A DNA stretch of 32,000 nucleotides from Candidatus Saccharimonadota bacterium (GCF_008189405.1 NZ_CP043316.1:480001-512000), one strand, 5' to 3'; positions 10,813 through 26,774 are shown, numbered from the stretch's first letter. Numbers and translations: made by a program. The notes: a model not told the origin generated them from the sequence alone.

Positions 10813-12639
10813 TTGACTTCATTTGCTAGGTTTATTAGAATATTTATAGTGTTTGGTAAAAATAAAAATATAATTCTATGGTTTATGTTAGTGATTCTTG
10901 CAATCGGGATGGCTAATGTATTTAAAAATTCTGATCAGCATGATATTCAAAATATAGCTTTTTCTGATTTCGCTTCTGATACTAATAAAGGTTTAATATC
11001 TTCTGTTGTCATAAGAGGCCCTAATGTTAAGGGATTTTTCAAAAATGGACAGAAATTTTCTACAACTGTTCCATACTCCGATAAGAATCTAGTAAAAAGG
11101 CTTTTGGATAATAAGGTACATATACAAGCTTCCTATTCTCAAGAAACTTCTTTGGTGAATTGGGTAGGTTTGATTTTATCTTGGTTGCCATCATTATTAA
11201 TTGTTGGAATGATGTTTTATTCCATGCGTAATATTCAGGGTAGTGCTGGGAAAACAATGGGATTGTTCGGAAAACTAAAAGCTCGCCTAGCAACGGGAGA
11301 AAATAATAATATCACTTTCGCAGATGTTGCTGGAGCTAAAGAAGCTAAAGAAGGTTTGAAAGAAATTGTAGACTTTTTAAAAAATAAACAAAAATTTGCT
11401 TCTTTGGGAGCTAGAATACCTAAAGGTGTACTGCTCTCAGGCCCTCCTGGAACAGGAAAAACTTTACTAGCAAAAAGTGTGGCTGGTGAGGCTGGAGTCC
11501 CATTTTTCTCTACATCTGGTTCTGATTTTATCGAAATGTTTGCTGGAGTTGGAGCAAGTAGAATTAGAGATATGTTCGAACAGGGCAAAAAACATGCGCC
11601 ATGCATTGTGTTTATTGATGAGATTGATGCTATTGGAGCTAAAAGAGGCGGGGGCATGGGCAGTGGATGTGAAGAAAGAGAACAAACACTGAACCAACTT
11701 CTTGTAGAAATGGATGGATTCACCCCTAATGAAGGAGTAATAATTCTTGCTTCTACTAACCGAGCTGGCGTATTGGATCCAGCTTTATTGCGTGCAGGTA
11801 GATTTGACAGACAAGTGACATTTTCATTACCTAATTTGGAAGAAAGAAAAGAAATATTACGATTACATATGAAAAAAATCAAAACTGATGATAGCATAAT
11901 GATCGATACTATTGCACAAGGAACACCTGGATTCTCTGGAGCTGATTTAAGTAATTTGATTAATGAAGCTGCTATATTCGCTGCTCGATATGAAAAGAAC
12001 ATGGTTAACATGTCTGATTTCGAAGAAGCGAAAGATAAAATATTAATGGGATCAAAGAAGAGCTCACTTATCATAAGCGATGAAGATAAAAAGCTTACAG
12101 CATATCACGAAGCTGGTCATGCATTAGTTGCGCTTAAAAGTAAAAATTCTGACCCTATTCACAAAGCAACTATTATTGCACGTGGGCATGCACTTGGAAT
12201 GGTCGTACGCCTTCCTGAAAAAGATCAAGTTTCTGTTTCAAAAGCTAAGTTACTAGATGATTTGGTAGTTGCGATGGGTGGGTTAGCTGCAGAAAAAATG
12301 ATTTTTGGTGATGATAAAGTTACAACAGGAGCATCATCAGACATCAAAATGGCTACAAATATAGCTAGAAATATGGTTACAAAATGGGGAATGGGTGATG
12401 CTGGTTACGTACACTATAACTATAATGATCAATATGATAATTCCACATCCCAGAGTATGTATGAAGTGATTGATAAACAAGTAAAAAAGATTGTTGATAA
12501 TGCATTTGATGTTGCATCTCAGATCCTTAAAAAATACGAAGAAAATTTACATACACTAGCCCAAAACTTAATCGAAAAAGAAGAGTTAACTGGCAAAGAA
12601 ATCAATGCATTACTTAGTAAACACACTACATTTAGGTAA
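10813..12639 (+). CDS. ftsH: ATP-dependent zinc metalloprotease FtsH
   Basis: Walker A GPPGTGKT, Walker B FIDEIDA, SRH TNRAGVLDPALLRAGRFDR and the zinc site HEAGHA are present, with two N-terminal TM segments. The start is uncertain: TTG at 10813 or GTG at 10849 (MFGKNKN...). Confidence 0.95.
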   Translation: MTSFARFIRIFIVFGKNKNIILWFMLVILAIGMANVFKNSDQHDIQNIAFSDFASDTNKGLISSVVIRGPNVKGFFKNGQKFSTTVPYSDKNLVKRLLDNKVHIQASYSQETSLVNWVGLILSWLPSLLIVGMMFYSMRNIQGSAGKTMGLFGKLKARLATGENNNITFADVAGAKEAKEGLKEIVDFLKNKQKFASLGARIPKGVLLSGPPGTGKTLLAKSVAGEAGVPFFSTSGSDFIEMFAGVGASRIRDMFEQGKKHAPCIVFIDEIDAIGAKRGGGMGSGCEEREQTLNQLLVEMDGFTPNEGVIILASTNRAGVLDPALLRAGRFDRQVTFSLPNLEERKEILRLHMKKIKTDDSIMIDTIAQGTPGFSGADLSNLINEAAIFAARYEKNMVNMSDFEEAKDKILMGSKKSSLIISDEDKKLTAYHEAGHALVALKSKNSDPIHKATIIARGHALGMVVRLPEKDQVSVSKAKLLDDLVVAMGGLAAEKMIFGDDKVTTGASSDIKMATNIARNMVTKWGMGDAGYVHYNYNDQYDNSTSQSMYEVIDKQVKKIVDNAFDVASQILKKYEENLHTLAQNLIEKEELTGKEINALLSKHTTFR

Positions 12640-15252
12640 TTTAGACTTTAATAATTTCTGAACGTTCTCACTATCTTTAATGGGATTATTCCATAAATTC
12701 AACTTAGTAAGATTTGTTAGCTTATCTAATCCTGGCAATTCACTAAATTTATTATTACTCAAACTCAGCTCAATTAGATTTGTTAGATTATCCAGTCCTG
12801 GCAATTCACTTAACTGATTATCATATAAATACAACTCAATAAGATTCGTTAGCTTATCTAATCCTGGCAATTCGCTGAACTGATTAGAATTTATATTTAA
12901 TTTAGTTAAATTTGTTAGCTTATCCAACCCTGGCAATTCACTAAATTTATTCTTATATAAATACAACTGAGTTAGATTTGTTAGCTTATCCAATCCTGGC
13001 AATTCGCTGAACTGATTACTACCCAAATACAACTCAGTTAGATTCGTTAGTTTATCCAATCCTGGCAATTCGCTGAACTGATTATTACCCAAATACAACC
13101 CAGTTAGATTTGTTAGCTTATCTAATCCTGGCAATTCACTAAATTTATTATTATATAAATATAACTCAGTTAAATTTATTAGTTTATCCAATCCTGGCAA
13201 TTCACTGAATTGATTATTATATAAATTCAACTCAGTTAGATTTGTTAGTTTATCCAATCCTGGCAATTCACTGAACTTATTATAATTTAGATTCAATTTA
13301 GTTAGATTCGTTAGTTTATCTAATTCTGGCAATTCGCTGAACTGATTATTACGCAAATACAACCCAGTTAGATTTGTTAGCTTATCTAACTCTTGTAATT
13401 CACTTAACTGATTCCAACTTAAATCCAATTCAATTAGATTTGTTAGCTTATCCAATCTTAGCAATTCGCTGAACTGATTATTACTCAAACTCAGATCAAT
13501 TAGATTTGTTAGCTTATCCAATCCTGGCAATTCGCTGAACTGATTATTATGCAAATATAATTTAGTTAAATTTATTAGTTTATCCAATCCTGGCAATTCA
13601 CTTAACTGATTATTCATTAAATTCAACTTAGTTAAATTTGTTAGCTTATCCAACCCTGGCAATTCGCTGAACTGATTATTATGTAAATTCAACTCAGTTA
13701 GATTCTTGAAATTAGATAATCCATCTAATTTATTTAACTTCTTATCTTGTAGATCTAACTTAGTAATTTTATTGCGCCATGCACATAATTTTATTGCTCT
13801 CCCTAGCCTATCTAATAGTTCTTTATGTGTTGCGCCATATGGTGAAATAATGGATCTGCTTAATACTACCAATTCCTTATTTATGCTCAATGATGTAGTA
13901 ATAGATGCATCAAACCCCGTATGTATAGAATATAGTGTTTCGAGAGTATTTAATTCTACTAATTGATCACTATTTAGATTCAATGATGTAAGATTAGGCA
14001 ATTTGTCCAATGCTGGTAATGCGCTAAATTGGCTATCACTGAAATCTAATTCGGTCAAATTTGTAAGATTACCCAATTCTGGAAGTAAACTGCAATCGCT
14101 AAACCTCATATTTAATATAGTTAAATTCACTAATTTGTCTAACCCTGGGTATGCTATAAATTTATTCAATCCTAAATTCAATTCTTTCAAATTGATTAGT
14201 TTATCCAATCCTGGTAATTCACTGAACTGATTAGAATTTATATTTAATTTAGTTAAATTAATTAGCTTATCCAAATTAGGCAACTCTATTAAATTATTAT
14301 TTCCTAAATCTAGTAATGTAAGATTTTGCAAATTAGCCAAATCAATTTCTTCTAACTTATTATGCTTTAAATTCAATTTAGATACTTTTGGCAAATCAGT
14401 AAAATCAGGTAATTCGCTAAACTTATTGTAGCTTAAATCTACTGTCTCTAAACTCACACACTGCTCAAAACCCTGTAATTCTTCTAACTCATTACAATGC
14501 AAATCCATATGCTCTAAGCGAATACATTTATCCAATCCCTCTAACCGCTTTAATTTATTATTTGATAAATCTAATTCTATTAAATTTATGCATCTATTTA
14601 ATGGACAAAATGTAGTCAACTTATTATTTGCTAAATCTAATTTTCTTAAAAATATCGATCTACCTAAATCAGGAGGCGATTCGATTCTATTATTATTTGC
14701 ACATATTTCAAATGCATTATGTATATGCCCAGGCAATGTTGTCAAACAGTTTTCTTGTAACCTCAAACAGCTTATGTTTATTCCCATTGGATTGTAAATA
14801 TTCTGCATTATATGTGTAGGGAATTCTTTTAGCTTTGACCCTTCCATATATAATGTGCCTATTTCAACCTTTGTAATCATCTCTGGTAGTTCTTCTAAAC
14901 CACTTATATTTAAAGATAAAGCTAAATATGTTTGCATAGAGTATTTATATATTTCGATTAAACTTTTTATATATGGACTATCATTTTCTCTAATAATCTC
15001 CTTTAGAGTTTCAGGATTTTTAGCATATCGCTCATAATTCTCATCAATATTTTCAGTAATACTTTGTGGCAACCAAGCATATTTATCCCCATTTTCCGTC
15101 AAAAAACTAGCGCGTTTATCAGATTTATACAGATCTATCATTAAACCCAAACGCTCTTCAATTCCCTTTTCAATATCGGTTACAGTATTCGTACCACATA
15201 TCATTAACGCATACAAATAGAAATTTAATATTTTCATGCCACCATTATACAT
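12610..15252 (-). CDS. Large leucine-rich-repeat protein (880 aa) with a 22-residue internalin-like repeat
   Basis: A non-repeat N-terminal region of about 190 aa is followed by about 11 divergent LRRs and a non-LRR linker of about 60 aa. Sixteen very regular units then follow (LPGLDKLTNLTxLxLxxNQFSE). The 3' end overlaps the ftsH 3' end by 30 nt. Confidence 0.9.
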   Translation of the reverse strand: MYNGGMKILNFYLYALMICGTNTVTDIEKGIEERLGLMIDLYKSDKRASFLTENGDKYAWLPQSITENIDENYERYAKNPETLKEIIRENDSPYIKSLIEIYKYSMQTYLALSLNISGLEELPEMITKVEIGTLYMEGSKLKEFPTHIMQNIYNPMGINISCLRLQENCLTTLPGHIHNAFEICANNNRIESPPDLGRSIFLRKLDLANNKLTTFCPLNRCINLIELDLSNNKLKRLEGLDKCIRLEHMDLHCNELEELQGFEQCVSLETVDLSYNKFSELPDFTDLPKVSKLNLKHNKLEEIDLANLQNLTLLDLGNNNLIELPNLDKLINLTKLNINSNQFSELPGLDKLINLKELNLGLNKFIAYPGLDKLVNLTILNMRFSDCSLLPELGNLTNLTELDFSDSQFSALPALDKLPNLTSLNLNSDQLVELNTLETLYSIHTGFDASITTSLSINKELVVLSRSIISPYGATHKELLDRLGRAIKLCAWRNKITKLDLQDKKLNKLDGLSNFKNLTELNLHNNQFSELPGLDKLTNLTKLNLMNNQLSELPGLDKLINLTKLYLHNNQFSELPGLDKLTNLIDLSLSNNQFSELLRLDKLTNLIELDLSWNQLSELQELDKLTNLTGLYLRNNQFSELPELDKLTNLTKLNLNYNKFSELPGLDKLTNLTELNLYNNQFSELPGLDKLINLTELYLYNNKFSELPGLDKLTNLTGLYLGNNQFSELPGLDKLTNLTELYLGSNQFSELPGLDKLTNLTQLYLYKNKFSELPGLDKLTNLTKLNINSNQFSELPGLDKLTNLIELYLYDNQLSELPGLDNLTNLIELSLSNNKFSELPGLDKLTNLTKLNLWNNPIKDSENVQKLLKSKLPKCSVFTK
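12670..13735. repeat. Tandem 66-bp coding repeats (about 16 units) inside the 880-aa LRR gene
   Basis: The motif cctggcaattc recurs at 12731, 12797, 12863, 12929 ... 13655, an exact 66-nt register over 14 intervals. Many stretches of about 40 nt are identical between units. Confidence 0.92.
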
Positions 15253-15452
15253 ATAATTCTTGCAATATCAACTACATATTAGATATGTTTAAGTGATTCT
15301 CAAATATTGATAAAATAGCTTAAATATCATCTAAATTTAAATGATATTTCTGCATTTAATACAAATTAATAATTTGTACTGAGAATACCATATCAAACTG
15401 ATGCTAAACAATGACAATCATGATTTCTTATAGTCAGATACAGCATTAAAAT

Positions 15453-16838
15453 TTATGCTCTATCCAAATCGTAAAATTTAGTCATAGCATCTTCAAATCC
15501 GATTTGCATATTTTTAATTGGACCATGCCTTTGTTTTGCAATCATAATCTCAGCTAAATTATGTATTTTTTCCATTTTAGCTTGCCATACTTCCATTTTA
15601 TCTGAACCCTCAGATGGTTTTTTTCTCGCTTCATAATAGGCTTCACGGAAAATAAACATTACAACATCAGCATCTTGCTCAATAGTACCAGATTCACGTA
15701 AGTCAGATAATTGAGGTCGCTTATCATCTCTTTGTTCAACTGCACGTGATAACTGTGATAATGCAACCACTGGTACTGATAATTCTTTTGCCAATGATTT
15801 TAATGATCTTGTAATAAATGATAATTCTTGCACCCTATTATCTTGATTCATACCAGAATGCATTAATTGTAAATAATCTAAAATAATTAAATCTAAATTC
15901 TCTTGCCTATGCAATCTCCTTGCTCGTGTTCGCAATCCAGATACACTCAATGCAGGTGTATCATCAATAAACAAAGGAATATCAAACAATTTCTGTGAAG
16001 TTTTTGTTAATTTATGCATTTCATGTTCTTGAATAGCTCCTCTTCTGATCTTATCAGATGGAATATTGGTCTCAGAACCTAGGATACGTAAAGCAAGTTG
16101 CTCTGAAGACATTTCAAGAGAGAAAAATGCTACTTTTTTCTTTTTTGAAGCAGCCTGAAATGCAATATTAGTTGCTAATGCAGTTTTACCCATAGATGGT
16201 CTTGCAGCTAAAATAATCAAATCAGATTTATGGAACCCACCTAAAGCTCTATCTAATTCATATAATCCTGTAGATATACCAACTACATGATCAGTACTCC
16301 TAAAAGCAACTTCTGCTTGTTTCACTGCTGCTGTCAATGCATTTCCAAAATTTATATCATTCTTTTGAGTACCTAACGTAGCTAAAGAAAATAAATTATG
16401 CTCTGCTTTTTCAATTTGCTCTAATGCGCTATGTTGTAATTGCATATCATAGGCTTCGCCTTTTATTTTATCTCCTATAAGTATTAATTGCCTTCTAACA
16501 TAACGGTCAAAGATTTGCTTACCATAGTCTTCTGTATGAGATAAAGAAATAATGTAAGATTCAAGATTTTTTAAATACTCTTCCCCACCATATTCTTTAA
16601 TTAATTCATCTTGTAGGAAAAATGGCCAAATTGTAATTGGATTAGCAAGCTGACCCTTTCCAATAGTATAAGATATATGCTGGAATATTTTTTTATGTAA
16701 TGGGTCAAAGAAATGCTCAGGTAATAAAAATTCTGCTATATTCTCGAAAAGTAAATTTTCATGCAAAACAGCTCCTAGAAGCGCTTTTTCTGCTTCTAAA
16801 GCATTAGGTAATATCTTTACTTCTTGAATATCATTCAT
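15453..16838 (-). CDS. dnaB: Replicative DNA helicase DnaB
   Basis: N-terminal PNALEAEKALLGAVL, Walker A AARPSMGKTALA, Walker B IILDYLQLM, and the SQLSR and RESGTIEQDADVV motifs are present. The gene starts 14 nt downstream of rplI. Confidence 0.95.
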   Translation of the reverse strand: MNDIQEVKILPNALEAEKALLGAVLHENLLFENIAEFLLPEHFFDPLHKKIFQHISYTIGKGQLANPITIWPFFLQDELIKEYGGEEYLKNLESYIISLSHTEDYGKQIFDRYVRRQLILIGDKIKGEAYDMQLQHSALEQIEKAEHNLFSLATLGTQKNDINFGNALTAAVKQAEVAFRSTDHVVGISTGLYELDRALGGFHKSDLIILAARPSMGKTALATNIAFQAASKKKKVAFFSLEMSSEQLALRILGSETNIPSDKIRRGAIQEHEMHKLTKTSQKLFDIPLFIDDTPALSVSGLRTRARRLHRQENLDLIILDYLQLMHSGMNQDNRVQELSFITRSLKSLAKELSVPVVALSQLSRAVEQRDDKRPQLSDLRESGTIEQDADVVMFIFREAYYEARKKPSEGSDKMEVWQAKMEKIHNLAEIMIAKQRHGPIKNMQIGFEDAMTKFYDLDRA

Positions 16839-16852
16839 ACTTTACGAATATA

Positions 16853-17323
16853 TTATTCTATAACTTCTGGAGATTTTACATTAATTGTAATGTTAGATTG
16901 ATTTCCATAAGTGTGTATTTGTGCAGTAAATGATCCAATCTCTTTAATAGGTTTCATAACAATATCTTCTTTTTTAATTGCAAAACCTTTATCAGCAAGC
17001 TGCATAATAATTTCTTTACTAGAAATAGAACCATAAAGTCTGAATCCATCAACAGTATTATGTTCAATATCTATTGTGATTTTATCAATTTGATCTTTAA
17101 TTGCCTTACCTTCTGCTTTTCTCTTTTCATCTATAGATAACCAATCGTTTCTTTTTTGTTCAAGCATTTCTAGATTTGGTTTAGTAGCCATAACAGCTCT
17201 TCCTTCAGGAATCAGAAAATTCAAAGCATATCCTCTTTTAACTGATACTACGTCACCAGGAAGACCTCTGCCTCTTAATCTTTCTTTCAATACTACAGAT
17301 ATTAAATGTGATGTTTTTTTCAT
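16853..17323 (-). CDS. rplI: 50S ribosomal protein L9
   Basis: VVLKERLRGRGLPGDVVSVKRGYALNFLIPEGRAV matches the L9 N-domain. The ATG at 17323 is preferred. The ORF extension to a TTG at 17416 is low-complexity with no L9 counterpart. Confidence 0.9.
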   Translation of the reverse strand: MKKTSHLISVVLKERLRGRGLPGDVVSVKRGYALNFLIPEGRAVMATKPNLEMLEQKRNDWLSIDEKRKAEGKAIKDQIDKITIDIEHNTVDGFRLYGSISSKEIIMQLADKGFAIKKEDIVMKPIKEIGSFTAQIHTYGNQSNITINVKSPEVIE

Positions 17324-17449
17324 AATATATACATTATTCTCCTCAAAAATGCTATTAAAATCAATAGCAAAAAATGTATTAGTAAATGTATTGGAAAATA
17401 ACAAGAATCCAGTCAAGAAAAATAATGAAAATTCTGCTAAAATTAATCT

Positions 17450-17647
17450 ATGTTTTTAAACATATCAATCGTATCAATATTAATTATATCAATATCCAAA
17501 AAGAGTTGGAGCAAATTTATAATTATAGATAGTATACTTCCTATTATATGTATCATATGGCTCAAACATGGCGTATCTTCTGAATATATATTTTTCTTCT
17601 TGATAAGTTCTTATTTATTACCTAAAATTCTAAAGGCGGTTTCATGA
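17450..17647 (+). CDS. Hypothetical small membrane protein (65 aa)
   Basis: ATG-initiated ORF with two hydrophobic segments. Its stop overlaps the next ORF's start (ATGA, 4-nt overlap). It could be a chance ORF in AT-rich DNA. Confidence 0.3.
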   Translation: MFLNISIVSILIISISKKSWSKFIIIDSILPIICIIWLKHGVSSEYIFFFLISSYLLPKILKAVS

Positions 17648-18138
17648 ATTCATTACTTAATTTTCATAACAAAATTACAAATTATTTCCATAACAAATCC
17701 ATGTGTATTATGTGTATGTTTTGGATAATACCATTTTTTATAAGTTTAACTATAGCATGGGTAGTACTACTAATAATTTTCTTTTTACTAGCAATGTTTG
17801 TCCCTATTTTTATACCTATTTTTGTATTACTTTCACTTGGAATAGCATTGATCAATATTATAATGCATATGCCATTATTAAGCATTTTATTTATAGGAGC
17901 ACTATGGGTACTGAGAGACCAAATCGATACAATATGGCATCAATTTTTCTTAAAAAAGAGTTATTCAATTCAAAAACCAATATTATCAAACTCTGCTCCT
18001 TTGATTTTATCTATATTTATAGTTCATGGATTATTCTATGTGCTTCCATTACCAAATATCTTAAAATTTGCAATCTTGTCATTAATTTCTGTTTATATGT
18101 TTAAAAACTCTAAGCATAACCATAAATGTTGTAATTAA
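17644..18138 (+). CDS. Hypothetical polytopic membrane protein (164 aa)
   Basis: About 4-5 predicted TM helices separated by a basic loop (RDQIDTIWHQFFLKKSYSIQK). It is on the same strand as, and 91 nt upstream of, the first SIGNL-type LRR gene. I recognise no family. Confidence 0.5.
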   Translation: MNSLLNFHNKITNYFHNKSMCIMCMFWIIPFFISLTIAWVVLLIIFFLLAMFVPIFIPIFVLLSLGIALINIIMHMPLLSILFIGALWVLRDQIDTIWHQFFLKKSYSIQKPILSNSAPLILSIFIVHGLFYVLPLPNILKFAILSLISVYMFKNSKHNHKCCN

Positions 18139-18229
18139 TATAACAATAAAAATAAAACTTATTAAATAAGAGATAGATTTTATAAAGTATATAATTTACA
18201 AAAAAATCATCTTACGATAATATAAAAAT

Positions 18230-19570
18230 ATGAAGAATTTTATGGTGTATGGTGCCGCATTGGCATTATATAATACTGCTCACTCTATAGGGTATTATGA
18301 AGAAGCAATTAGAAAATATGATAATCATTTGTACTTATGCTTGGAGAAAGTCAACAAATCCAATAAAACATTTCCATTAGATGCATTTGATCTTATTATT
18401 TCGTATGTTTACAGAAAAGATAGCATGGGTGATATTATTAACTGCGTTGGATTACGTTGTAGTGCACAAAGTGGTTTGGATAAACTATATCTAAATCATG
18501 TAGTCGGAGTCATGCAATTAATATCAAGCTGTTATAATTATGAAAGTTTATATTTGGATAATGCAAACTTAAGCGAAGTAAATCCTCATATATGCACAAT
18601 GGGTGCCAGATTGGAAAAATTAGTATTAAGTCATAATCAAATAAAATTATCATACCCAGCAAACAGCAAACCAATTCCTAATGTAGGTGATCTAACTAAG
18701 CTAGCAGAATTAGATTTAGGATCAAACAATATCACATCACTACCTGAATATGTATATAAATTAGAGAACTTATGGAGATTAGATTTGAGTTCTAATGACT
18801 TAGAATCTCTTGATCCTGTATTAGCTCCTATAGCTCCTATAGTCATCACTAAGAAGGTTAAAGAGTCATTTTTTAGCAGATTATTTAAGAAAAACAAAAA
18901 GGTAGAAGCAAAACCATTAGTTGATTCTCCTAGAAGATCATATGATTTGAGCGATTTGAAAAATATGGAAATGTTGAATTTAAATAACAATCAACTTACT
19001 GAATTGCCACAGTCAATTGGACGCTTAAAAGAATTACGAGAGTTAAGTGCTGATGCAAATCAACTTACTGAATTGCCTGATTTAAGTAACTCAAATAAAT
19101 TAGAGAGGTTATGTATAAAATTCAATAACATAACAGTGTTCCCTACTTTAAGTTTCAGTATTAGAATATTAAATTTAGCATTCAATCAAATTGAACTGCT
19201 ACCTAATATCAATCATTTAGTAAATGCGGAAGAAATCTACCTAAATAACAACTGCATCAAACTACTACCTAATATAAATAATTTATCTAATCTAAAAGTA
19301 CTACATTTGCATGTCAATAAACTGACTAAATCACCTAACGTAGATGGGTTAACCGAATTAAAAGTATTAAGATTGGAAAGAAATCCAATTGTACAAGATA
19401 GCCAATCTTCTGCAGCACAAAGTGAATGTGATAATCAAAATTCCACAAAAGATTCCCAAGAAGATGAGAGTCATGGAAATTCATTAAGAGAAGAAGCATA
19501 CAGCAGACCAGATTCCGTAGGAAGTGAATGGGTATTACCAGAATCCCCATTATCTCAACCTTCTGATTAA
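18230..19570 (+). CDS. Leucine-rich-repeat protein (446 aa) with a 23-residue LTELPxSIG-type repeat
   Basis: The N-terminus is signal-like (MKNFMVYGAALALYNTAHS). Two LRR blocks follow (e.g. LNLNNNQLTELPQSIGRLKELRELSADANQLTELP), split by a basic insert. The 59-aa C-terminal tail is acidic and Ser/Gln-rich. Confidence 0.87.
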   Translation: MKNFMVYGAALALYNTAHSIGYYEEAIRKYDNHLYLCLEKVNKSNKTFPLDAFDLIISYVYRKDSMGDIINCVGLRCSAQSGLDKLYLNHVVGVMQLISSCYNYESLYLDNANLSEVNPHICTMGARLEKLVLSHNQIKLSYPANSKPIPNVGDLTKLAELDLGSNNITSLPEYVYKLENLWRLDLSSNDLESLDPVLAPIAPIVITKKVKESFFSRLFKKNKKVEAKPLVDSPRRSYDLSDLKNMEMLNLNNNQLTELPQSIGRLKELRELSADANQLTELPDLSNSNKLERLCIKFNNITVFPTLSFSIRILNLAFNQIELLPNINHLVNAEEIYLNNNCIKLLPNINNLSNLKVLHLHVNKLTKSPNVDGLTELKVLRLERNPIVQDSQSSAAQSECDNQNSTKDSQEDESHGNSLREEAYSRPDSVGSEWVLPESPLSQPSD

Positions 19571-19698
19571 ATTTTTTAATTATTAAAATCTAGATTTGAA
19601 ATATATCATTTAGACACATCATTGAAACAAAATCATCAATTTGAATTAACTAAAAACACTGGATTGCCAAATCATTATACATCAACTACAATGCACCA

Positions 19699-21801
19699 AT
19701 GAATTATACAAAGAGAATAAATTTACTATGTTTCCTAGCATCATGTAGTATAAATGCAAGTTATATTGATGAAGTGTGCCATGAAGTATCTTATGAATAT
19801 ATTGGGCAATGTCGTAAATCAATACAATTTGATCAATGCAAATTTTTGCAGGAATTCCTGTTCAGAAAAACAAAAAAAAATCTACCAAGAGGCGCATATG
19901 ATTCTGTAATGTCATTTATGCACATAGATGATCATTATTTTATGCATTTAAGTGACCATATGCTCAATATTTTTTGTGAAAAGCATATAGCAAGCGATGA
20001 TCATATGAAAGAATATATACTAAAATTATCTTTTAATATAATAGAGCCTCATATAATACAAAGGACAAAAAGGTTGCGTGAACCTTTATTAGAATTAGAT
20101 AATACCCCAAACTATATAAGCAAACTAACTGAATTAACGGAATTATGTTTACACTACAGTGACTTAGAGGTATTGCCTTCATTTGTAGCCAACCTCACCA
20201 AATTAACTAATTTAAGCTTTGGCCAAAAACAATTAAAAGTATTACCAGAATTCATTGGAAACTTACGTGAGTTAATATATTTGCACTTATCTTGCCCTCA
20301 ATTAGAAACACTACCAGATTCTATTGGGAATTTAAATAAATTGACAGAGCTTAATTTATACAGTGAGTGCGGTAATAAATTAGAAGCATTCCCAAATTCT
20401 ATAGGAAATTTAACAGAATTGACAATGTTTGATTTTGCACGTAGTCAAATCAAACTATTGCCAAATTCTATAGGGAATTTAAATAAATTAGTCTATATTT
20501 ACTTAGAAGATAATCAATTAGAAGTATTACCAGATTCTATAGGGAATTTAATAAGCTTGAAAAGATTAGAATTAGCACGTAATAAACTAAACGTATTGCC
20601 ACAATCTATAGGAAATTTGATGGAATTGAGAGTTCTGATTCTGTCACATAATAAATTAGAAGTATTGCCAAATTCTATAGGAAATTTAAATAAGTTGAAA
20701 TATTTAATATTAATTGATAATCAACTAAAAATGCTACCAGATTCTATCGGAAATTTAACTAGCTTGCAGGAATTACCCCTGTCAAATAATCGATTAAAGG
20801 TATTACCAGAATCTATTGGAAATTTAATTAGCTTGAAAGATTTACACCTGGATTGTAATCAACTAAGAACACTTCCAGAATCTATAGGAAATTTAACTAA
20901 TTTGATAGATATGCCATTACATAATAATCAATTAGAAGAACTCCCAAAGTCCATAGGAAATTTAAATAAATTAAAATACTTTCGTATAGAAAATAATCAA
21001 TTAAAAGTATTACCAGAATCTATTGGTAAATTAATTTTATTAGTATGGTTAAACTTAGCACATAACCAATTAGAAGAATTACCAGAATCTATAGGCAATC
21101 TAAATAAATTAGAAAAATTAGAACTATCACATAATCGACTCAAAGTATTGCCACAATCTATACAGGCATTAAAAAACTTGGAAAAATTATTTATGTCATA
21201 TAATCTACTCAAAGTATTGCCACAATCTATACAGGTATTAAAAAACTTGGAAAAATTATTTATGACACATAATCAATTAGAAACACTTCCAGAGTCGATA
21301 CAAAATTGCACAAAATTAAGATTATTAGATTTAGAACATAATCAATTAAAAGCACTGCCAAGATATATGAAAGACTCTATCACAACACTAATAAGACTTG
21401 ATTTATCATATAATCAATTAGAGACACTTCCACAGCTTACACAAGATTTAGTAGGATTAGGATCGCTATCCTTATCACTAGCACATAATCCATTAAAAAT
21501 ATTGCCAGAACAGTATATAGAATATGCTATAAGCTTAGAATCATTATATGTATCGTATGATCAATTAGAAGAATTGTCAAAATATATTATTAGTTTAAAT
21601 GAATTCACACATAAGCTACAAGGAAATACTGTGCTACTAAACAGTATTTTCGTATTAGATATGGATAAAAAAAATACGGCAGACACTACAACAATTAGGT
21701 ATCATATAAAATTGGGTGGGAAAATTGCAATGACGGATTATCCTAAATGTATTATATCAAAATGGTGGACTACAAAAGCAAGAGTAATTGGATTAGAATA
21801 A
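19699..21801 (+). CDS. Leucine-rich-repeat protein (700 aa), about 20 LPxSIGNLxxLxxLxLxxNxL repeats, putative lipoprotein
   Basis: The N-terminus MNYTKRINLLCFLASC fits a lipobox (L-A-S-C). A non-repeat domain of about 140 aa is followed by about 20 highly regular 23-residue repeats and a non-repeat C-terminal domain of about 90 aa. Confidence 0.9.
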   Translation: MNYTKRINLLCFLASCSINASYIDEVCHEVSYEYIGQCRKSIQFDQCKFLQEFLFRKTKKNLPRGAYDSVMSFMHIDDHYFMHLSDHMLNIFCEKHIASDDHMKEYILKLSFNIIEPHIIQRTKRLREPLLELDNTPNYISKLTELTELCLHYSDLEVLPSFVANLTKLTNLSFGQKQLKVLPEFIGNLRELIYLHLSCPQLETLPDSIGNLNKLTELNLYSECGNKLEAFPNSIGNLTELTMFDFARSQIKLLPNSIGNLNKLVYIYLEDNQLEVLPDSIGNLISLKRLELARNKLNVLPQSIGNLMELRVLILSHNKLEVLPNSIGNLNKLKYLILIDNQLKMLPDSIGNLTSLQELPLSNNRLKVLPESIGNLISLKDLHLDCNQLRTLPESIGNLTNLIDMPLHNNQLEELPKSIGNLNKLKYFRIENNQLKVLPESIGKLILLVWLNLAHNQLEELPESIGNLNKLEKLELSHNRLKVLPQSIQALKNLEKLFMSYNLLKVLPQSIQVLKNLEKLFMTHNQLETLPESIQNCTKLRLLDLEHNQLKALPRYMKDSITTLIRLDLSYNQLETLPQLTQDLVGLGSLSLSLAHNPLKILPEQYIEYAISLESLYVSYDQLEELSKYIISLNEFTHKLQGNTVLLNSIFVLDMDKKNTADTTTIRYHIKLGGKIAMTDYPKCIISKWWTTKARVIGLE
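21139..21264. repeat. Near-perfect 69-bp tandem duplication inside the 700-aa LRR gene
   Basis: ctcaaagtattgccacaatctatacagg[c/t]attaaaaaacttggaaaaattatttatg occurs at 21139-21195 and again at 21208-21264, with 56/57 nt identical. It encodes LKVLPQSIQ[A/V]LKNLEKLFM twice. Confidence 0.9.
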
Positions 21802-21809
21802 ATATAATT

Positions 21810-23663
21810 TCAAATCAAAATCTCCCTCTTACCAGATCGATCTGGTTTACTTACAACTCCCTGCTCTTCCATAGATTCAACAATACGTGCAGCCCTATTA
21901 TATCCAATTTGCAATTGACGCTGAATGTAACTAATTGATACTTTTTTATCTCGTAAAATAACTTGTACAGCCTGTACGTACATGGGATCATTATTTTCTT
22001 CCTCATCAAGATTATGTTCTTTAACTTCTAATTCTATATAAACAGGCTCTCTCTGCTCTTTTAAAAAATTTGTAATTTCCTGAACTTCATCATCAGATAC
22101 AAAAGGAGCTTGGATTCTTGTAGTAGGGTAACCAGGAGAAAGATAAAGCATATCTCCTTTTCCTAGCAACTGCTCTGCTCCACTATTATCTCCCATAATT
22201 GTTCTGCTATCAATTTTGGATGCTAATTGGAATGTTATTCGTACTGGGAAATTGGATTTAATTGTTCCTGTAATAACGTCTACTGATGGCCTTTGAGTAG
22301 CCATAATAATATGTATTCCGGCTGCACGAGCCATTTGAGCTAATCTCTGTACGGACACTTCAATTTCTTTTCCAGCTGTCATCATCAGGTCAGCCATTTC
22401 ATCTACTACTATAACCAAATATGGCATTTTCTCGTACTTTTTATCAGTTTTTGCTTTAAAAGATTCACGCTGTACTTTTTCATTGAAACTTGAAATATTT
22501 CTCACTTCAACTTCAGAAAGTAATTTATATCTCCTTTCCATTTCTTGTACTGCCCATTTCAAAACTTTTACAGCTTCTTGAGGGTTAGTGACAACTGGGG
22601 TAAGAAGATGTGGGATTCCATTGTAAACTGATAATTCTAATTGCTTAGGATCAACCAATATAAACTTACAGTCATCTGGATCTTTTGAATATAACAGAGA
22701 AAGCATCATACTATGCATCGAAACAGATTTACCTGAACCTGTAGTTCCTGACACAAGCAAATGAGGCATTTGATTTAAATCTACGATAATTGGTTTCCCA
22801 GTTATATCACAGCCTAATGCTAATGGTAAATTACAATTATTATTCTGGAAAACACTAGAATCTAGCACATCACGCAAGTTAATCAAATTCCTAACTTTAT
22901 TTGGCAATTCAATTCCTAGTAGATTCTTACCTGGAATAGTTGAAATACGGGCAGAAAGAGACTCAGTAGAACGTGCAATATCATCAGATAAGTTTATGAT
23001 TTTTGATGCTTTTACCCCTGGCGCAGGTTCAAATTCAAACATCGTAACAACTGGCCCATTATGCTGGTTTAGTAGCTTTCCTTCCACTTTATATTCATTC
23101 AATATTTTTTGTAATAATTCTTTCGAAATGCTTTCTGATCTTTTTGATTTAGATGAAGACAGAAATGAAACTTTAGGCAGCATAAAAGAAGATTTAATCG
23201 TTTTGGCTTTTTTATTTATACTTTTAACAGATTTCACTTTATTTGTTTCTGGAGATTTTGTACGATTTCCAAATATGTGATTTCCTAATATACCACTCTT
23301 AAATATACGTTTGTAACCATAGTAATATAAATATAAGAATAGTATTGGCACATAAATGTAAGCAGAAATAGCAGAAATGAACTGCTTATTGATCATTCCG
23401 AACATTCCACCTAATTGCATATTATTCGTAAATTTAAAAGTTCTTACAATTCCAAATTTATCTAAATCACCCAAAATAATACTAGATATTACAGCAAGCA
23501 GTATCGAATGTAGTTTCAAAAAAGGAATAAAAGGCGCAATCAGAATTGTTAATCCAAAAAAATCATATAATGCAGTTAAGGTATGGTATGAATTCCACCC
23601 AGAATTAAAAAAACAATACATATACATAATTGATATAGCTGAATATAAATATTTAATAATCAT
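21810..23663 (-). CDS. ftsK: DNA translocase FtsK (short form)
   Basis: N-terminal TM helices are followed by a motor domain with Walker A VSGTTGSGKS and Walker B LVIVVDEMADLM. The C-terminal winged-helix gamma domain is SISYIQRQLQIGYNRAARIVESMEEQGVV. Confidence 0.93.
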   Translation of the reverse strand: MIIKYLYSAISIMYMYCFFNSGWNSYHTLTALYDFFGLTILIAPFIPFLKLHSILLAVISSIILGDLDKFGIVRTFKFTNNMQLGGMFGMINKQFISAISAYIYVPILFLYLYYYGYKRIFKSGILGNHIFGNRTKSPETNKVKSVKSINKKAKTIKSSFMLPKVSFLSSSKSKRSESISKELLQKILNEYKVEGKLLNQHNGPVVTMFEFEPAPGVKASKIINLSDDIARSTESLSARISTIPGKNLLGIELPNKVRNLINLRDVLDSSVFQNNNCNLPLALGCDITGKPIIVDLNQMPHLLVSGTTGSGKSVSMHSMMLSLLYSKDPDDCKFILVDPKQLELSVYNGIPHLLTPVVTNPQEAVKVLKWAVQEMERRYKLLSEVEVRNISSFNEKVQRESFKAKTDKKYEKMPYLVIVVDEMADLMMTAGKEIEVSVQRLAQMARAAGIHIIMATQRPSVDVITGTIKSNFPVRITFQLASKIDSRTIMGDNSGAEQLLGKGDMLYLSPGYPTTRIQAPFVSDDEVQEITNFLKEQREPVYIELEVKEHNLDEEENNDPMYVQAVQVILRDKKVSISYIQRQLQIGYNRAARIVESMEEQGVVSKPDRSGKREILI

Positions 23664-23712
23664 TATAATATTCCATTCTTTCTATACAATTTTCTATACA
23701 ATCTAAAATTTC

Positions 23713-24399
23713 CTACGATATCCTATAGTGAATACTTAGCCCAGCTCTGCTAACTTTTGGCTTAAATCGGAAGAATCTTGAATCAAATGGAGAAATTGAA
23801 TTGAGTCCAAATGATTTGCTTTCTAGCCTATTAAAACTTGTCACTGCCCATATATATGATATATCAAAGCTTAATTTTGATGATATCTCAAAATACATTC
23901 CACTTTTCACACCAAAAAATGGGACAAAAATACTTTTCTCATCAAATTCTATTTTATTATTATTTGATGGATCGAATATACCAGATGACATATCTATAAA
24001 TGATGCTTCTGGTTTAAATCTTGTTGCACAAATTCCAGGACCAGTATATATTTTCATTTTTCTTGAACCAATCCCAATTTTAGCAAAAAGCTCTAAATTT
24101 AGGTTGTCATTTTTAATCTTTAGATCTAATTCATCACTTGTATAAGTAATAGTTTTATTTACTATACCTATATTAACACTGCCCCCAATATGTACAATTC
24201 TATTGATATTATTCCAATGATCAAATGATAATCCAAAACTAAAATTTTTACTTGTTTTCATCTTTTTACCATTTAAATCATTGTCTGATTTAATTACAGG
24301 TTGCTTAAAATCCTTAGATCCTAATGCAATACCTATTCCAGTATTCGCATACAAATGAGCAGCAAACATACAACTGATTAGAGCACTTCTAATAAACAT
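23713..24399 (-). CDS. Putative small outer-membrane beta-barrel protein
   Basis: A signal peptide (MFIRSALISCMFAAHLYA) is followed by about 8 amphipathic alternating-hydrophobic strands (FSFGLSFDH, LELFAKIGIG, FGVKSGMYFEIS, LSFDISYIWAV, AGLSIHYRI). The C-terminus lacks the usual terminal Phe. The ORF extends to 24417. Confidence 0.6.
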   Translation of the reverse strand: MFIRSALISCMFAAHLYANTGIGIALGSKDFKQPVIKSDNDLNGKKMKTSKNFSFGLSFDHWNNINRIVHIGGSVNIGIVNKTITYTSDELDLKIKNDNLNLELFAKIGIGSRKMKIYTGPGICATRFKPEASFIDMSSGIFDPSNNNKIEFDEKSIFVPFFGVKSGMYFEISSKLSFDISYIWAVTSFNRLESKSFGLNSISPFDSRFFRFKPKVSRAGLSIHYRIS

Positions 24400-24494
24400 A
24401 CACCAATTATAAAGCATATCTACATATAAATTAAGGTACTAAAACAATATAAAAATAAGATGCTAAAATGGTATGAAAATGCTAGAATAGTGAC

Positions 24495-24884
24495 ATGTCA
24501 AACAAACCATACAAACGTAACGAACGATTAGCTTGCCAACTGTTAGATATGATCACAAAAGAAGCATGGATGCTACACGGCAGTATATGTAGCTTTACAT
24601 ACGTTAAATTAAGCAAAGATTTCAAGTATGCAGATGTATATTTACAAACTGATGATGAGAAAAGTCTAGAAATACTACAAGAGTCTGAGCGTGATATTAT
24701 CAAAAAAATCAAAACACAGTGGCATGCAAAATATTTACCAACATTACGATTCCACCTTGATAAAGAGGCAATACGCTTAGATAAATTACAACAAATTTAC
24801 CGAAGTGAAGAATTTAAAACCTATAAAGAAAATGATCAACATAGTAATGACAAAGAAGATGATCACCATAATAGTGACAAATAG
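24495..24884 (+). CDS. rbfA: Ribosome-binding factor A
   Basis: RNERLACQLLDMITKE...SFTYVKLSKDFKYADVYL...PTLRFHLD matches the RbfA KH-like fold pattern. A low-complexity acidic/His C-terminal tail follows. Confidence 0.85.
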   Translation: MSNKPYKRNERLACQLLDMITKEAWMLHGSICSFTYVKLSKDFKYADVYLQTDDEKSLEILQESERDIIKKIKTQWHAKYLPTLRFHLDKEAIRLDKLQQIYRSEEFKTYKENDQHSNDKEDDHHNSDK

Positions 24885-25056
24885 TATAAATTAGCATAGC
24901 AATGATAAAGAATGAAATCATAAAGAAATTATAAAACAAATAATACAAAAGTAATAAATAGAATTATAAAACAATTAAACAAAACAAATAAGTGTATAAA
25001 AACATAAACAAAGATTACATAATATTTATATAATATAAATAATAAATAAAAATGAA

Positions 25057-25130
25057 CACGCTCTATAGGATTCGAACCTATGACCTGTAGCTTAGAAGGC
25101 TATTGCTCTGTCCAGCTGAGCTAAGAGCGC
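25057..25130 (-). tRNA. tRNA-Arg (anticodon UCU)
   Basis: The reverse complement folds as a cloverleaf. The acceptor is GCGCTCT/AGAGCGT. The D arm is GCTC-AGCTGGACA-GAGC, with A20 present. The anticodon arm is ATAGC-CTTCTAA-GCTAC. The variable loop is AGGTC, the T arm is ATAGG-TTCGAAT-CCTAT, and the discriminator is G. No CCA is encoded. Confidence 0.9.
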
Positions 25131-25622
25131 ATACACATTTTATCTCACAAATTAAAATTTATAGCAATAATATGTGCATAATTTTTATAAAACACGATAT
25201 AAAATATACGATATATAGATAAAATATTTTATCTAAGTTCTAAATATTCTTAATCACAATGCAAAAATATCACTATGCAATATATAAATAGTAAGAACGT
25301 ACGAAAGAGTGCATAAGAAATATAACAGATTACAAAAGCAATCTAGTAGATTAAGCATGCATTATAATATTTATATATAATTCCCTCACATCAACCCTTC
25401 TGCATAAGCACCTTAATATCCATTCTACTAACTGACACCTAATACAGTTCTTCATATAAATAGAGCAACAAACCTATGAAGGAAGTTTAAGTAAGTAGGA
25501 TGAATCAGAATAAATAAACAGATTACATAATATTAATTTCATAGCCATATAAAATAATGTGATTTAATGTGAAATACATAATTATTATCTAAAATCGATA
25601 AAAATTACAGTTTTGATTAATT

Positions 25623-26120
25623 TTAAGCTCTTTTAGCTTTTGGTTTTCTTGAATATCCCAAACCTGAGTCAACAGCAAGTTTTTGTCTTACTTTTGAATA
25701 GTTAGGAGCTACAACAGGATAGTCTGCTGGCAAATTCCATCGTTCTTTATATGCATCCAAAGACATGTGATATCTATTTTGCAAATATCTCTTCAAAACT
25801 TTAAGTTTCTTTCCATCTTCTAAACAGACCAAGTAATCTTCATGTATTGATTCTTCTACTGGCACAGCAGGCTTTAATGGCTTGCCTGGAGATCTAAATA
25901 CTTCTTTTACTTGACTCTTCATTGAATAAAGTAATTCTTTGATTTGATCTACCGAAATTGGCTCATGAGAATTATTCATGTATGACGCAAATACTTGAAT
26001 AGTTGCATCTATGATAATATCTGATTCTGAGTCATATTCGTTATTAAAAAGACTTTCTTCATCTAACATAGAATCATCATCTATGTTCAAATCGTCTTCC
26101 ATATGCTTATGTTCATTCAT
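25623..26120 (-). CDS. mucR: Ros/MucR-family transcriptional regulator with a degenerate zinc site
   Basis: The C-terminal LVCLEDGKKLKVLKRYLQNRYHMSLDAYKERWNLPADYPVVAPNYSKVRQKLAVDSGLG aligns with the Ros/MucR DNA-binding domain. The N-terminal IDATIQVFASYMNN aligns with the oligomerisation region. The start at 26120 lies downstream of AGAGGGAGGG. The ORF extends to 26147. Confidence 0.87.
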   Translation of the reverse strand: MNEHKHMEDDLNIDDDSMLDEESLFNNEYDSESDIIIDATIQVFASYMNNSHEPISVDQIKELLYSMKSQVKEVFRSPGKPLKPAVPVEESIHEDYLVCLEDGKKLKVLKRYLQNRYHMSLDAYKERWNLPADYPVVAPNYSKVRQKLAVDSGLGYSRKPKAKRA

Positions 26121-26249
26121 GGTATTATATACCCTCCCTCTAAACATTAAATCTAATTAACTTATAGACAGCTAGATTGATAAATTATACATAATTTACT
26201 TATGAAATCAAGAGTAGATTGCTGAAAAATTATTTGGTATTCTAGTAGT

Positions 26250-26774
26250 GTGTATAGTTTTCCCAATTTTAAGAATCATAAATCTCAAAAAGGTTCATTT
26301 CTTGCGGCATCTCCATTTATAACAAATAAAACATTACAAAATGCTGTTATAGTAATATTAGAGTGTAATGAATCTATTGTTTCTGCTGTAAAAATAAACC
26401 AAACCAAATTAAAGCAAGAAGAATATTGCTCTTACCCAATGTATGATGGTGGTTTATCTGATCATAAAAAAATATTACTTTTGCATAGTGGTGATAAAAA
26501 ATTAGCAAATACTAATCAGCTTACTGAAGATATATTTGTAACAGATATGGATGAAACAACTCAATTTTATCCAAAAAAATATTATGCAGTGCCTGGATGT
26601 ATGAGTTGGATGTATGAAGACTTCATGAAAGAAGTGAAGAATAGTGAATGGATTCCTGTAATGGGATCTAGCAAGCTAGTATTTGATACGCCAATAATTA
26701 AAAGATGGCATGAAGCATATAGATCATGTGGAATACGACCAGAATTGATCCAACGTGAATATGCTATAAACTAA
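26250..26774 (+). CDS. YqgE/AlgH-family (UPF0301) protein
   Basis: GSFLAASPFI...LQNAVIVILECNE...AVKINQ, GGL...LLLHS, GCMSWMYEDFMKEV...WIPV and LVFDTPIIKRWHEAYRSCGI follow the YqgE/AlgH pattern. The start codon is GTG. Confidence 0.8.
   Translation: MYSFPNFKNHKSQKGSFLAASPFITNKTLQNAVIVILECNESIVSAVKINQTKLKQEEYCSYPMYDGGLSDHKKILLLHSGDKKLANTNQLTEDIFVTDMDETTQFYPKKYYAVPGCMSWMYEDFMKEVKNSEWIPVMGSSKLVFDTPIIKRWHEAYRSCGIRPELIQREYAIN

Follow-up and report, generated by a model that had tools for sequence, protein, structure and literature searches.

Intracellular bacteria commonly have leucine-rich repeat (LRR) proteins, and the locus described here raises the question of what one of them, a protein of 880 residues, does for an endosymbiont of a diplonemid. 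Diplonemids rank among the most abundant marine heterotrophic protists, and Cytomitobacter cells are reportedly wrapped by the host mitochondrion, with close contact between the two. The DNA that we analyzed (32,000 nt, NZ_CP043316.1:480001-512000, hereafter the window) comes from Candidatus Cytomitobacter primus, a Holosporaceae endosymbiont of Diplonema japonicum (PMC13598402); this obligate endosymbiont is a Gram-negative alphaproteobacterium with a genome of ~622 kb (622,378 bp, OX638200.1, GCA_951805245.1). The genomes of this endosymbiont group, C. primus included, were described by George et al. (bioRxiv 10.1101/719211; published 2020), who found LRR-domain proteins beside type VI secretion system (T6SS) effectors and scattered through the genomes, listed 4 LRR_4 and 3 LRR_8 proteins for C. 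primus among their Pfam counts (supplementary table), and proposed that the LRR proteins of the C. primus genome interact with the eukaryotic host. The window holds three LRR genes, which we call A, B, and C (Table 1), and gene A, the longest of them, is our subject. The reading we favor, to which we give about an even chance of being correct, is that gene A encodes a functional, lineage-specific, all-LRR protein that is exported and binds host proteins without enzymatic activity, and that its repeat array grew in place.

An earlier note on this DNA had reported an 880-residue LRR open reading frame (ORF) between ftsH and dnaB at 12610-15252, and the gene occupies exactly these coordinates, on the minus strand and with an ATG start. 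Gene A is real and intact: its 880 codons run uninterrupted through DNA of ~30% G+C, far beyond what chance would give.

Protein A belongs to the SDS22-like, or internalin-type, class of LRR proteins. Following Kobe and Kajava, we took as the marks of this class a 22-residue unit, a variable segment with NxIxxIxxLxxLxx spacing, and nearest relatives within the class. The DNA repeats with a period of 66 nt (Tandem Repeats Finder, 12694-13704: 15.3 copies, 81% matches, score 1182), the consensus is NNQFSELPGLDKLTN, and the nearest solved sequences detected by phmmer are InlA (185 bits), the LRR domain of Chlorobium tepidum Roco (180 bits), and SDS22/PPP1R7 (112 bits), which bears out the 22-residue internalin-type repeat that had been described for this protein. 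Foldseek searches with the predicted structure returned LRR structures alone, with InlA superposed at 2.5-3 Å over ~386 columns and the C. tepidum Roco LRR domain (5il7) at 3.5 Å; tandem LxxLxLxxN/C units together with a predicted solenoid of one strand per unit place protein A in the LRR superfamily.

Protein C, in contrast, falls into the "typical" LPxSIGxL class (SHOC2/Xop/Leptospira). Its DNA period is 69 nt, its best Pfam model is LRR_14 (194 bits) against LRR_4 (311 bits) for protein A, which further matches LRR_8 (125 bits) and LRR_1 (62 bits), and its nearest solved sequences are Leptospira LIC11098, MIK2, SHOC2, and LRRD1. Among NCBIfam models, protein A matches internalin_A and protein C matches XopAE/XopAC/XopL, all with scores far below the curated cut-offs. 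The unit hidden Markov models (HMMs) that we built separate the two proteins as well: A units score 40-52 bits on the 22-residue model and C units 37-45 bits on the 23-residue model, whereas the cross-scores are <15 bits for A units and <10 bits for C units. Gene B fits neither class cleanly, because a single unit (aa 247-267), clearly of the 23-residue SIG type and scoring 25 bits on the C model, is followed in it by units spaced 22 residues apart; it ends its repeats in an LxLxxNPI cap, as does protein A. The earlier description of B and C as SIGNL-type genes with a 23-residue unit is therefore right for gene C, but gene B mixes both lengths, and a classification of all three proteins sets A and C apart while leaving B between them. 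The tail of protein B consists of ~60 residues (aa ~385-446) of acidic, Ser/Gln-rich, low-complexity sequence.

Approximately 32 LRR units can be parsed in protein A by the pattern LxxLxLxxN, 25 of them at exactly 22-residue spacing. An AlphaFold2 model built with 40 homologues predicts two confident solenoids, one with 11 strands (aa ~202-443) and one with 17 strands (aa ~497-852), with predicted local distance difference test (pLDDT) values mostly >90. The 17 strands of the second solenoid correspond to 1 divergent unit, 15 near-uniform units, and 1 C-terminal capping unit, after which a cap helix is predicted at aa ~861-871. Between the solenoids, the pLDDT drops to <50 at aa ~447-473, followed by a helix (aa ~476-491) ahead of the first strand of the second solenoid. 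The N-terminal 200 residues, including the irregular LRR units at aa 106-201, were modeled without confidence, and the mean pLDDT was only 34 when aa 1-289 were predicted from the single sequence.

The four-part architecture proposed in the earlier note is thus broadly right, with ~11 divergent LRRs matched by the 11 predicted strands, but three of its elements need correction. The N-terminus is not free of repeats for ~190 residues, since LRR-like units begin near aa 105-160 (phmmer, aa 103-196; BLASTP, aa 158-201). The break between the arrays, described as a non-LRR linker of ~60 residues, exists but measures ~52 residues and contains a predicted helix before the second array. The near-uniform array, counted as 16 LRRs, has 15 such units plus one divergent and one capping unit. 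When the two halves of protein A are compared by BLASTP, the arrays are 47% identical over 285 residues with three gap positions, and units of the second array line up in register with aa 158-201. Judged from these alignments, both solenoids share one origin, and the truly non-LRR N-terminus is an orphan region of only ~100-105 residues.

Evidence that gene A is functional comes from the pattern of change among the 15 near-uniform units (aa 518-847), which share the consensus LTxLxLxNNQFSELPGLDKLTN and are on average 76% identical in pairwise comparison. We applied the Nei-Gojobori method to all pairs of these units to estimate non-synonymous (dN) and synonymous (dS) divergence. At the 18 scaffold positions, dN is 0.060 and dS 0.58 (dN/dS 0.10), and the codons vary mostly synonymously (Leu as CTA/TTA/CTT/TTG/CTG, Ser as AGC/AGT, Lys as AAG/AAA). 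At positions 3, 5, 7, and 8, which are the most variable and are rich in Tyr, Asn, Ser, and His, dN is 0.59 and dS 0.34 (dN/dS 1.7), with 4-7 different amino acids at each position and nearly every codon difference non-synonymous; adding position 2 gives dN 0.51, dS 0.19, and dN/dS 2.65. The five positions with the highest non-synonymous differences (pN) are precisely the five canonical solvent-exposed positions 2, 3, 5, 7, and 8 of LxxLxLxxN, a coincidence expected by chance once in C(22,5) = 26,334. The AlphaFold2 strands span unit positions 3-5, and in LRR structures such as the InlA/E-cadherin complex these variable side chains line the concave, ligand-binding face. Amino-acid change in the uniform array is confined to the canonical concave-face positions, and the resulting surface is rich in Tyr, Asn, Ser, and His. 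Because the scaffold is under purifying selection, gene A is functional, which is the robust conclusion of our analysis; and because scaffold dS has reached ~0.58 at a dN/dS of ~0.10, the uniformity of the array is upheld by selection and is not merely recent. Taken together, concave-face change and a conserved scaffold argue for a functional binding protein.

Database searches point to a lineage-specific protein. When aa 1-199 were searched exhaustively by phmmer against 1.84 billion representative proteins, seven matched, all through LRR-like stretches and all within aa 103-196, and aa 1-100 matched nothing in that set; a search of protein databases with aa 1-515 likewise gave LRR-only matches and no orthologue. 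In a 5.8-billion-cluster database, the best matches of the whole protein were LRR-Roc-COR proteins and proteins labeled "internalin A" by their sources, at 40-48% identity over 40-69% of the query, and these came from Bacteroidota, cyanobacteria, and metagenomes, not from Alphaproteobacteria. Such alignments reflect similarity to a repeat consensus, not orthology, and since consensus-like LRRs resemble many unrelated bacterial proteins, the source of gene A cannot be read from them. Using Smith-Waterman alignment with shuffled controls, we compared the N-terminal region and the break with each other, with the N-termini of proteins B and C, and with a 233-aa ORF of C. indipagum; no score rose above chance (z ≤ 1.4), and a "SPY + helix" cap motif noticed by eye was rejected on the same scores. 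BLASTP of protein A against the 233-aa ORF gave E = 0.009 with only the first LRR units covered. The non-LRR homology that the earlier note had proposed to look for in the N-terminus and the linker was thus not found by phmmer or Smith-Waterman alignment.

The exact protein A sequence is absent from a 15-billion-sequence collection, in which, of the three LRR proteins, only that of gene B (QEK38704.1) occurs; a near-identical protein from an earlier C. primus assembly was absent in both homology searches, and neither an exact 30-mer of gene A nor dnaB peptide patterns matched a genome-contig collection. Because of its absence from the public protein collection, gene A may have been missed by annotation. 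Three relatives have dnaB orthologues: C. indipagum, at 86% identity; a second Cytomitobacter genome, at 85%; and a related metagenome-assembled genome (MAG), at 81%. No LRR gene lies within 10 kb of dnaB in the second Cytomitobacter genome or the MAG, and in C. indipagum nothing lies between dnaB and ftsH except long microsatellites of 9 nt and short ORFs, some of them frameshifted, that have a few LPKEI-type LRR units and were not detected by tblastn as related to protein A. The C. primus locus contains 12 occurrences of the back-translated ELPGLDKL motif, and the dnaB loci of the three relatives contain none. By these comparisons, protein A is lineage-specific and not a housekeeping family: it has no orthologue, an orphan N-terminus, and no such gene within 10 kb of dnaB in the three relatives.

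The presence of two LRR classes within 10 kb had been taken to indicate at least two independent acquisitions or expansions. As an alternative to growth in place, the 22-residue gene and the 23-residue genes could have been acquired independently by horizontal transfer as two classes of host-binding protein. A and C do differ in class by every test, and the best matches of protein A come from Bacteroidota and cyanobacteria, not Alphaproteobacteria. However, the G+C of gene A equals that of the genome, the matches share only consensus-like repeats at 40-48% identity, which are uninformative on descent, gene B holds both unit lengths in one protein, and no donor-like full-length relative was found by phmmer in the protein databases. 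We consider independent acquisition unlikely; it is not demonstrated by the data, which favor the other half of that claim, expansion in situ. The highest nucleotide identities fall between non-adjacent units (628/716, 95%; 694/760, 91%; 584/826, 88%), and a unit of the first array (aa 333-354, 14191-14256) matches one of the second (aa 782-803, 12844-12909), 449 residues away, at 91% of nucleotides and 21 of 22 amino acids. This similarity of non-adjacent units, within and across the arrays, points to unit duplication or gene conversion within and between them.

Read from Met6, protein A begins MK-ILNFYLYALMI-CGT, with a Kyte-Doolittle maximum of 1.89, and its LMIC differs from a canonical lipobox. 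Protein B begins MK-NFMVYGAALALY-NTAHS and protein C begins MNYTKR-INLLCFLAS-C, so at the N-terminus of all three LRR proteins of the window a hydrophobic stretch comes after a basic residue; protein C, which has a canonical lipobox, looks like a lipoprotein. The hydropathy maxima of A, B, and C (1.7-1.9) lie near that of an outer membrane protein (OMP)-like protein of the window and above those of most cytosolic proteins, although not cleanly. Export of protein A is plausible from these features, though unproven. Alternatively, protein A could reside in the cytoplasm or within the bacterial envelope as an LRR adaptor for bacterial partners, as in Roco proteins, without host contact. This placement would agree with the best database matches, which are LRR domains of cytoplasmic bacterial Roco proteins, with the weakness of the signal-peptide evidence, and with the lack of secretion genes near gene A in the window, but it fits poorly with the lack of a Roc, COR, or other partner domain, with the concentration of variation on the concave face, and with the absence of an orthologue in the closest relatives, which one would not expect of a core bacterial function in a genome of 622 kb. 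We regard it as rather unlikely.

In the mechanism we favor, protein A would be exported, probably through Sec via its hydrophobic N-terminus, and would act as a non-enzymatic binding scaffold. The ligand of each concave face would be a protein, most likely one of the diplonemid host. With a flexible break between them, the two binding sites could serve as a bivalent tether or adaptor, and duplication of units together with gene conversion would have enlarged and reshuffled the uniform array in place. Several points weigh against this account. The translation start is uncertain, at Met1 or Met6, and the N-terminus resembles a signal peptide only from Met6; the hydrophobic segment is short and Tyr/Asn-rich, with a hydropathy only modestly above that of cytosolic proteins. 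Pfam searches and gene calls reveal no secretion-system genes in the window. The dN/dS values derive from paralogous units of one gene, with few and non-independent sites and no formal test of positive selection, and relaxed constraint at exposed sites would likewise raise dN. The model leaves the mutual orientation of the two solenoids unfixed, because its predicted template modeling score (pTM) is 0.57; the hinged solenoids that the earlier note proposed to look for are compatible with two confident solenoids and a low-confidence break, but a hinge is not proven by the model. Finally, the expression and export of protein A are presumed, and its ligand is putative.

A bolder version of this account, which we consider quite improbable, holds that protein A is an evolvable, antibody-like bivalent binder with an invariant scaffold, a concave face diversified under positive selection through intragenic unit duplication and gene conversion, and hinged solenoids that tether the endosymbiont to a host structure; gene A would in that case be one of the determinants of host association that a genome of 622 kb encodes. 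Least probable, and very doubtful, is that gene A is a neutral or decaying repeat expansion, open by chance or recently expanded and without selected function: LRR genes do turn over fast in the genus, the corresponding site in C. indipagum has LRR fragments with frameshifts as well as microsatellites, and the public protein collection lacks this exact sequence, but the 880-codon frame is open in AT-rich DNA, the amino-acid scaffold is kept through many synonymous changes (dN/dS ~0.10 at dS ~0.58), and both solenoids are predicted with high confidence. A cytoplasmic role and neutral expansion are both less likely than a functional binder. An 880-aa protein solely of binding repeats in a genome of ~622 kb is a concrete candidate for a host-contact factor, with its conserved scaffold, its variable, Tyr-rich concave face, and its absence at the nearest relatives' locus. 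Proteins of the LRR kind are very well known, so the wider addition is small; interest would rise if host tethering under diversifying selection proved true.

Table 1. Features of gene A, its neighbors, and the other LRR genes of the window.
Feature	Position (nt)	Strand	Description
Gene A, whole ORF	12610-15252	-	ATG start; stop codon 12610-12612; 880 aa (875 aa from Met6); called also in OX638200.1
aa 6-19	15196-15237	-	MKILNFYLYALMIC; basic residue, then hydrophobic segment; candidate Sec signal peptide or membrane anchor, read from sequence
aa 20-105	14938-15195	-	Orphan acidic region; helices predicted, pLDDT <50; no homologue detected
aa 106-201	14650-14937	-	~4 irregular LRR units of 20-29 residues: LALSLNISGLEELP..., IGTLYMEGSKLKEFP..., ISCLRLQENCLTTLP..., AFEICANNNRIESPP...
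aa 202-443	13924-14649	-	First solenoid; 11 divergent units of 21-22 residues, mean pairwise identity 35%
aa 444-495	13768-13923	-	Break between solenoids, ~52 aa; low-confidence stretch, then helix capping second solenoid
aa 496-847	12712-13767	-	Second solenoid; 1 divergent unit, then 15 near-uniform 22-residue units
aa 848-880	12613-12711	-	C-terminal capping unit LTKLNLWNNPIKDSENVQKLLKSKL (helix) and short basic tail
Sigma-70-like site	15244-15271	-	TTGATA-16-TATAAT; 11/12 positions; best consensus match of the region
dnaB	15453-16838	-	Same strand as gene A, 200 nt upstream of it
ftsH	10813-12639	+	Converges on gene A; 3' ends overlap by 30 nt (12610-12639)
Gene B	18230-19570		LRR gene
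Gene C	19699-21801		LRR gene
Protein C lipobox	19735-19746		Canonical L-A-S-C, aa 13-16, after MNYTKR-INLLCF

The -10 box of the sigma-70-like site (Table 1) sits over codons 2-3 of gene A, and the transcript may start at or near the Met6 ATG (15237), possibly giving a leaderless mRNA; sites of this kind are no more numerous in the region than in shuffled sequence, and the site is a consensus match alone. A sequence scan of the gene A region found no terminator-like site. At the other end, the last 9 codons and the stop of gene A overlap the 3' end of ftsH on the opposite strand. Because the FtsH C-terminus is equally long in C. primus and C. indipagum, it is the gene A frame that extends into ftsH and not ftsH that extends into gene A.

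How ftsH, rplI-dnaB, algH-mucR, and ftsK are ordered and oriented varies among the three Cytomitobacter genomes, as compared over 10813-26774 of the C. primus window, and LRR genes stand at these junctions in C. primus and C. indipagum. With gene order around them varying between the genomes, the LRR genes seem to mark breakpoints of synteny. In the C. indipagum locus (CP043315.1), the 9-nt microsatellites form long runs directly downstream of dnaB (locus positions 11381-11800); one frame translates them as (IIQ)n, (LFR)n, and (GLF)n, and they create spurious ORFs on either strand. A tandem pair of short, paralogous LRR genes (12207-13434) occupies the dnaB-ftsH interval where C. primus has gene A; the two share the C-terminal motif IC(N/S)LSL..F...G.G(G)(N/D)D..L(I/V)(A)NS....(V/I)KEW, and one is split into ORFs of 76 and 98 aa, probably by a frameshift or as a pseudogene. 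Elsewhere in the window, a very hydrophobic ORF of 164 aa lies between rplI and gene B (17644-18138, plus strand) and has no Pfam match, nor does an ORF of 316 aa at 31044-31994 (minus strand). Beside ftsK, an ORF of 234 aa (23713-24417, minus strand) has a signal-like N-terminus and a sub-threshold match to an OMP beta-barrel (22 bits against a cut-off of 28.7).

Among proteins of solved structure, protein A is most like the LRR domain of Listeria monocytogenes internalin A (InlA; PDB 2omt, 2omz, 1o6s), with which it shares the 22-residue SDS22-like unit LTNLTxLxLxxNQ(I/F)S(D/E)(I/L). In the phmmer alignment, query and chain are each covered over 339 residues, and these equal spans imply a gap-free register; the Foldseek identity is 35%. 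The resemblance is nonetheless that of the repeat alone. Protein A lacks the N-terminal cap domain, the immunoglobulin (Ig)-like inter-repeat domain, and the LPXTG or GW anchor of internalins: across its 880 residues Pfam matches only LRR families, and not Internalin_N, LRR_adjacent, Roc, or COR, and its C-terminus (...NPIKDSENVQKLLKSKLPKCSVFTK) contains neither an LPXTG sortase signal nor GW modules. On the NCBIfam internalin_A model it scores 293 bits against a cut-off of 1600, with profile positions 83-383 (the LRR) alone matching, and the other internalin models score lower still. InlA has one solenoid where protein A has two, and the bearer of protein A is a Gram-negative alphaproteobacterial endosymbiont. 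A Listeria-type internalin is thus ruled out, since the match is confined to the LRR, and the epithet "internalin-like" in the earlier note holds for the repeat but not for the defining non-LRR parts.

The bacterial Roco proteins, represented by C. tepidum Roco (PDB 5il7, 6hlu, 8r4b), have the same repeat class and reach 180 bits in the PDB search, but protein A has no Roc GTPase or COR domain and its N-terminus is an orphan. Because Roc/COR-bearing matches align through the LRR alone, an LRR-Roc-COR protein is ruled out as well. A T-x-x-ELL-x-x-I-x-x-A pattern recurs at residue 1-2 of several Roco matches, weakly and with scores within the shuffle range; a resemblance of the second solenoid's cap helix to a Roco-type N-terminal cap is possible, as a weak and non-significant lead. 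Type III LRR effectors (YopM; IpaH/SspH with NEL) are excluded, since the unit has 22 and not 20 residues: YopM matches weakly (71-91 bits, phmmer against solved structures), and NEL and SspH2 are not among the NCBIfam or Pfam matches.

SDS22 (PPP1R7), the regulatory subunit of eukaryotic protein phosphatase 1 (PP1), gives the LRR class its name. It shares the 22-residue unit with protein A and matches aa 585-824 at 112 bits, but it consists of one short solenoid and is a conserved housekeeping protein of eukaryotes, and nothing in protein A points to PP1 binding. Closer to home, the LRR proteins of C. primus were already known as Pfam counts from the study of George et al. (bioRxiv 10.1101/719211), which does not describe protein A, its two solenoids, its class, or its pattern of variation; the protein itself is previously undescribed and apparently unannotated. 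Some of the LRR proteins in that study adjoin T6SS genes, unlike the gene A locus. The nearest comparison in space is gene C, which lies within the same 10 kb as gene A and likewise encodes an LRR solenoid protein whose N-terminus is hydrophobic, but whose product is built from 23-residue LPxSIGNL units of the kind found in SHOC2, LIC11098, and the Xanthomonas proteins XopAE, XopAC, and XopL.

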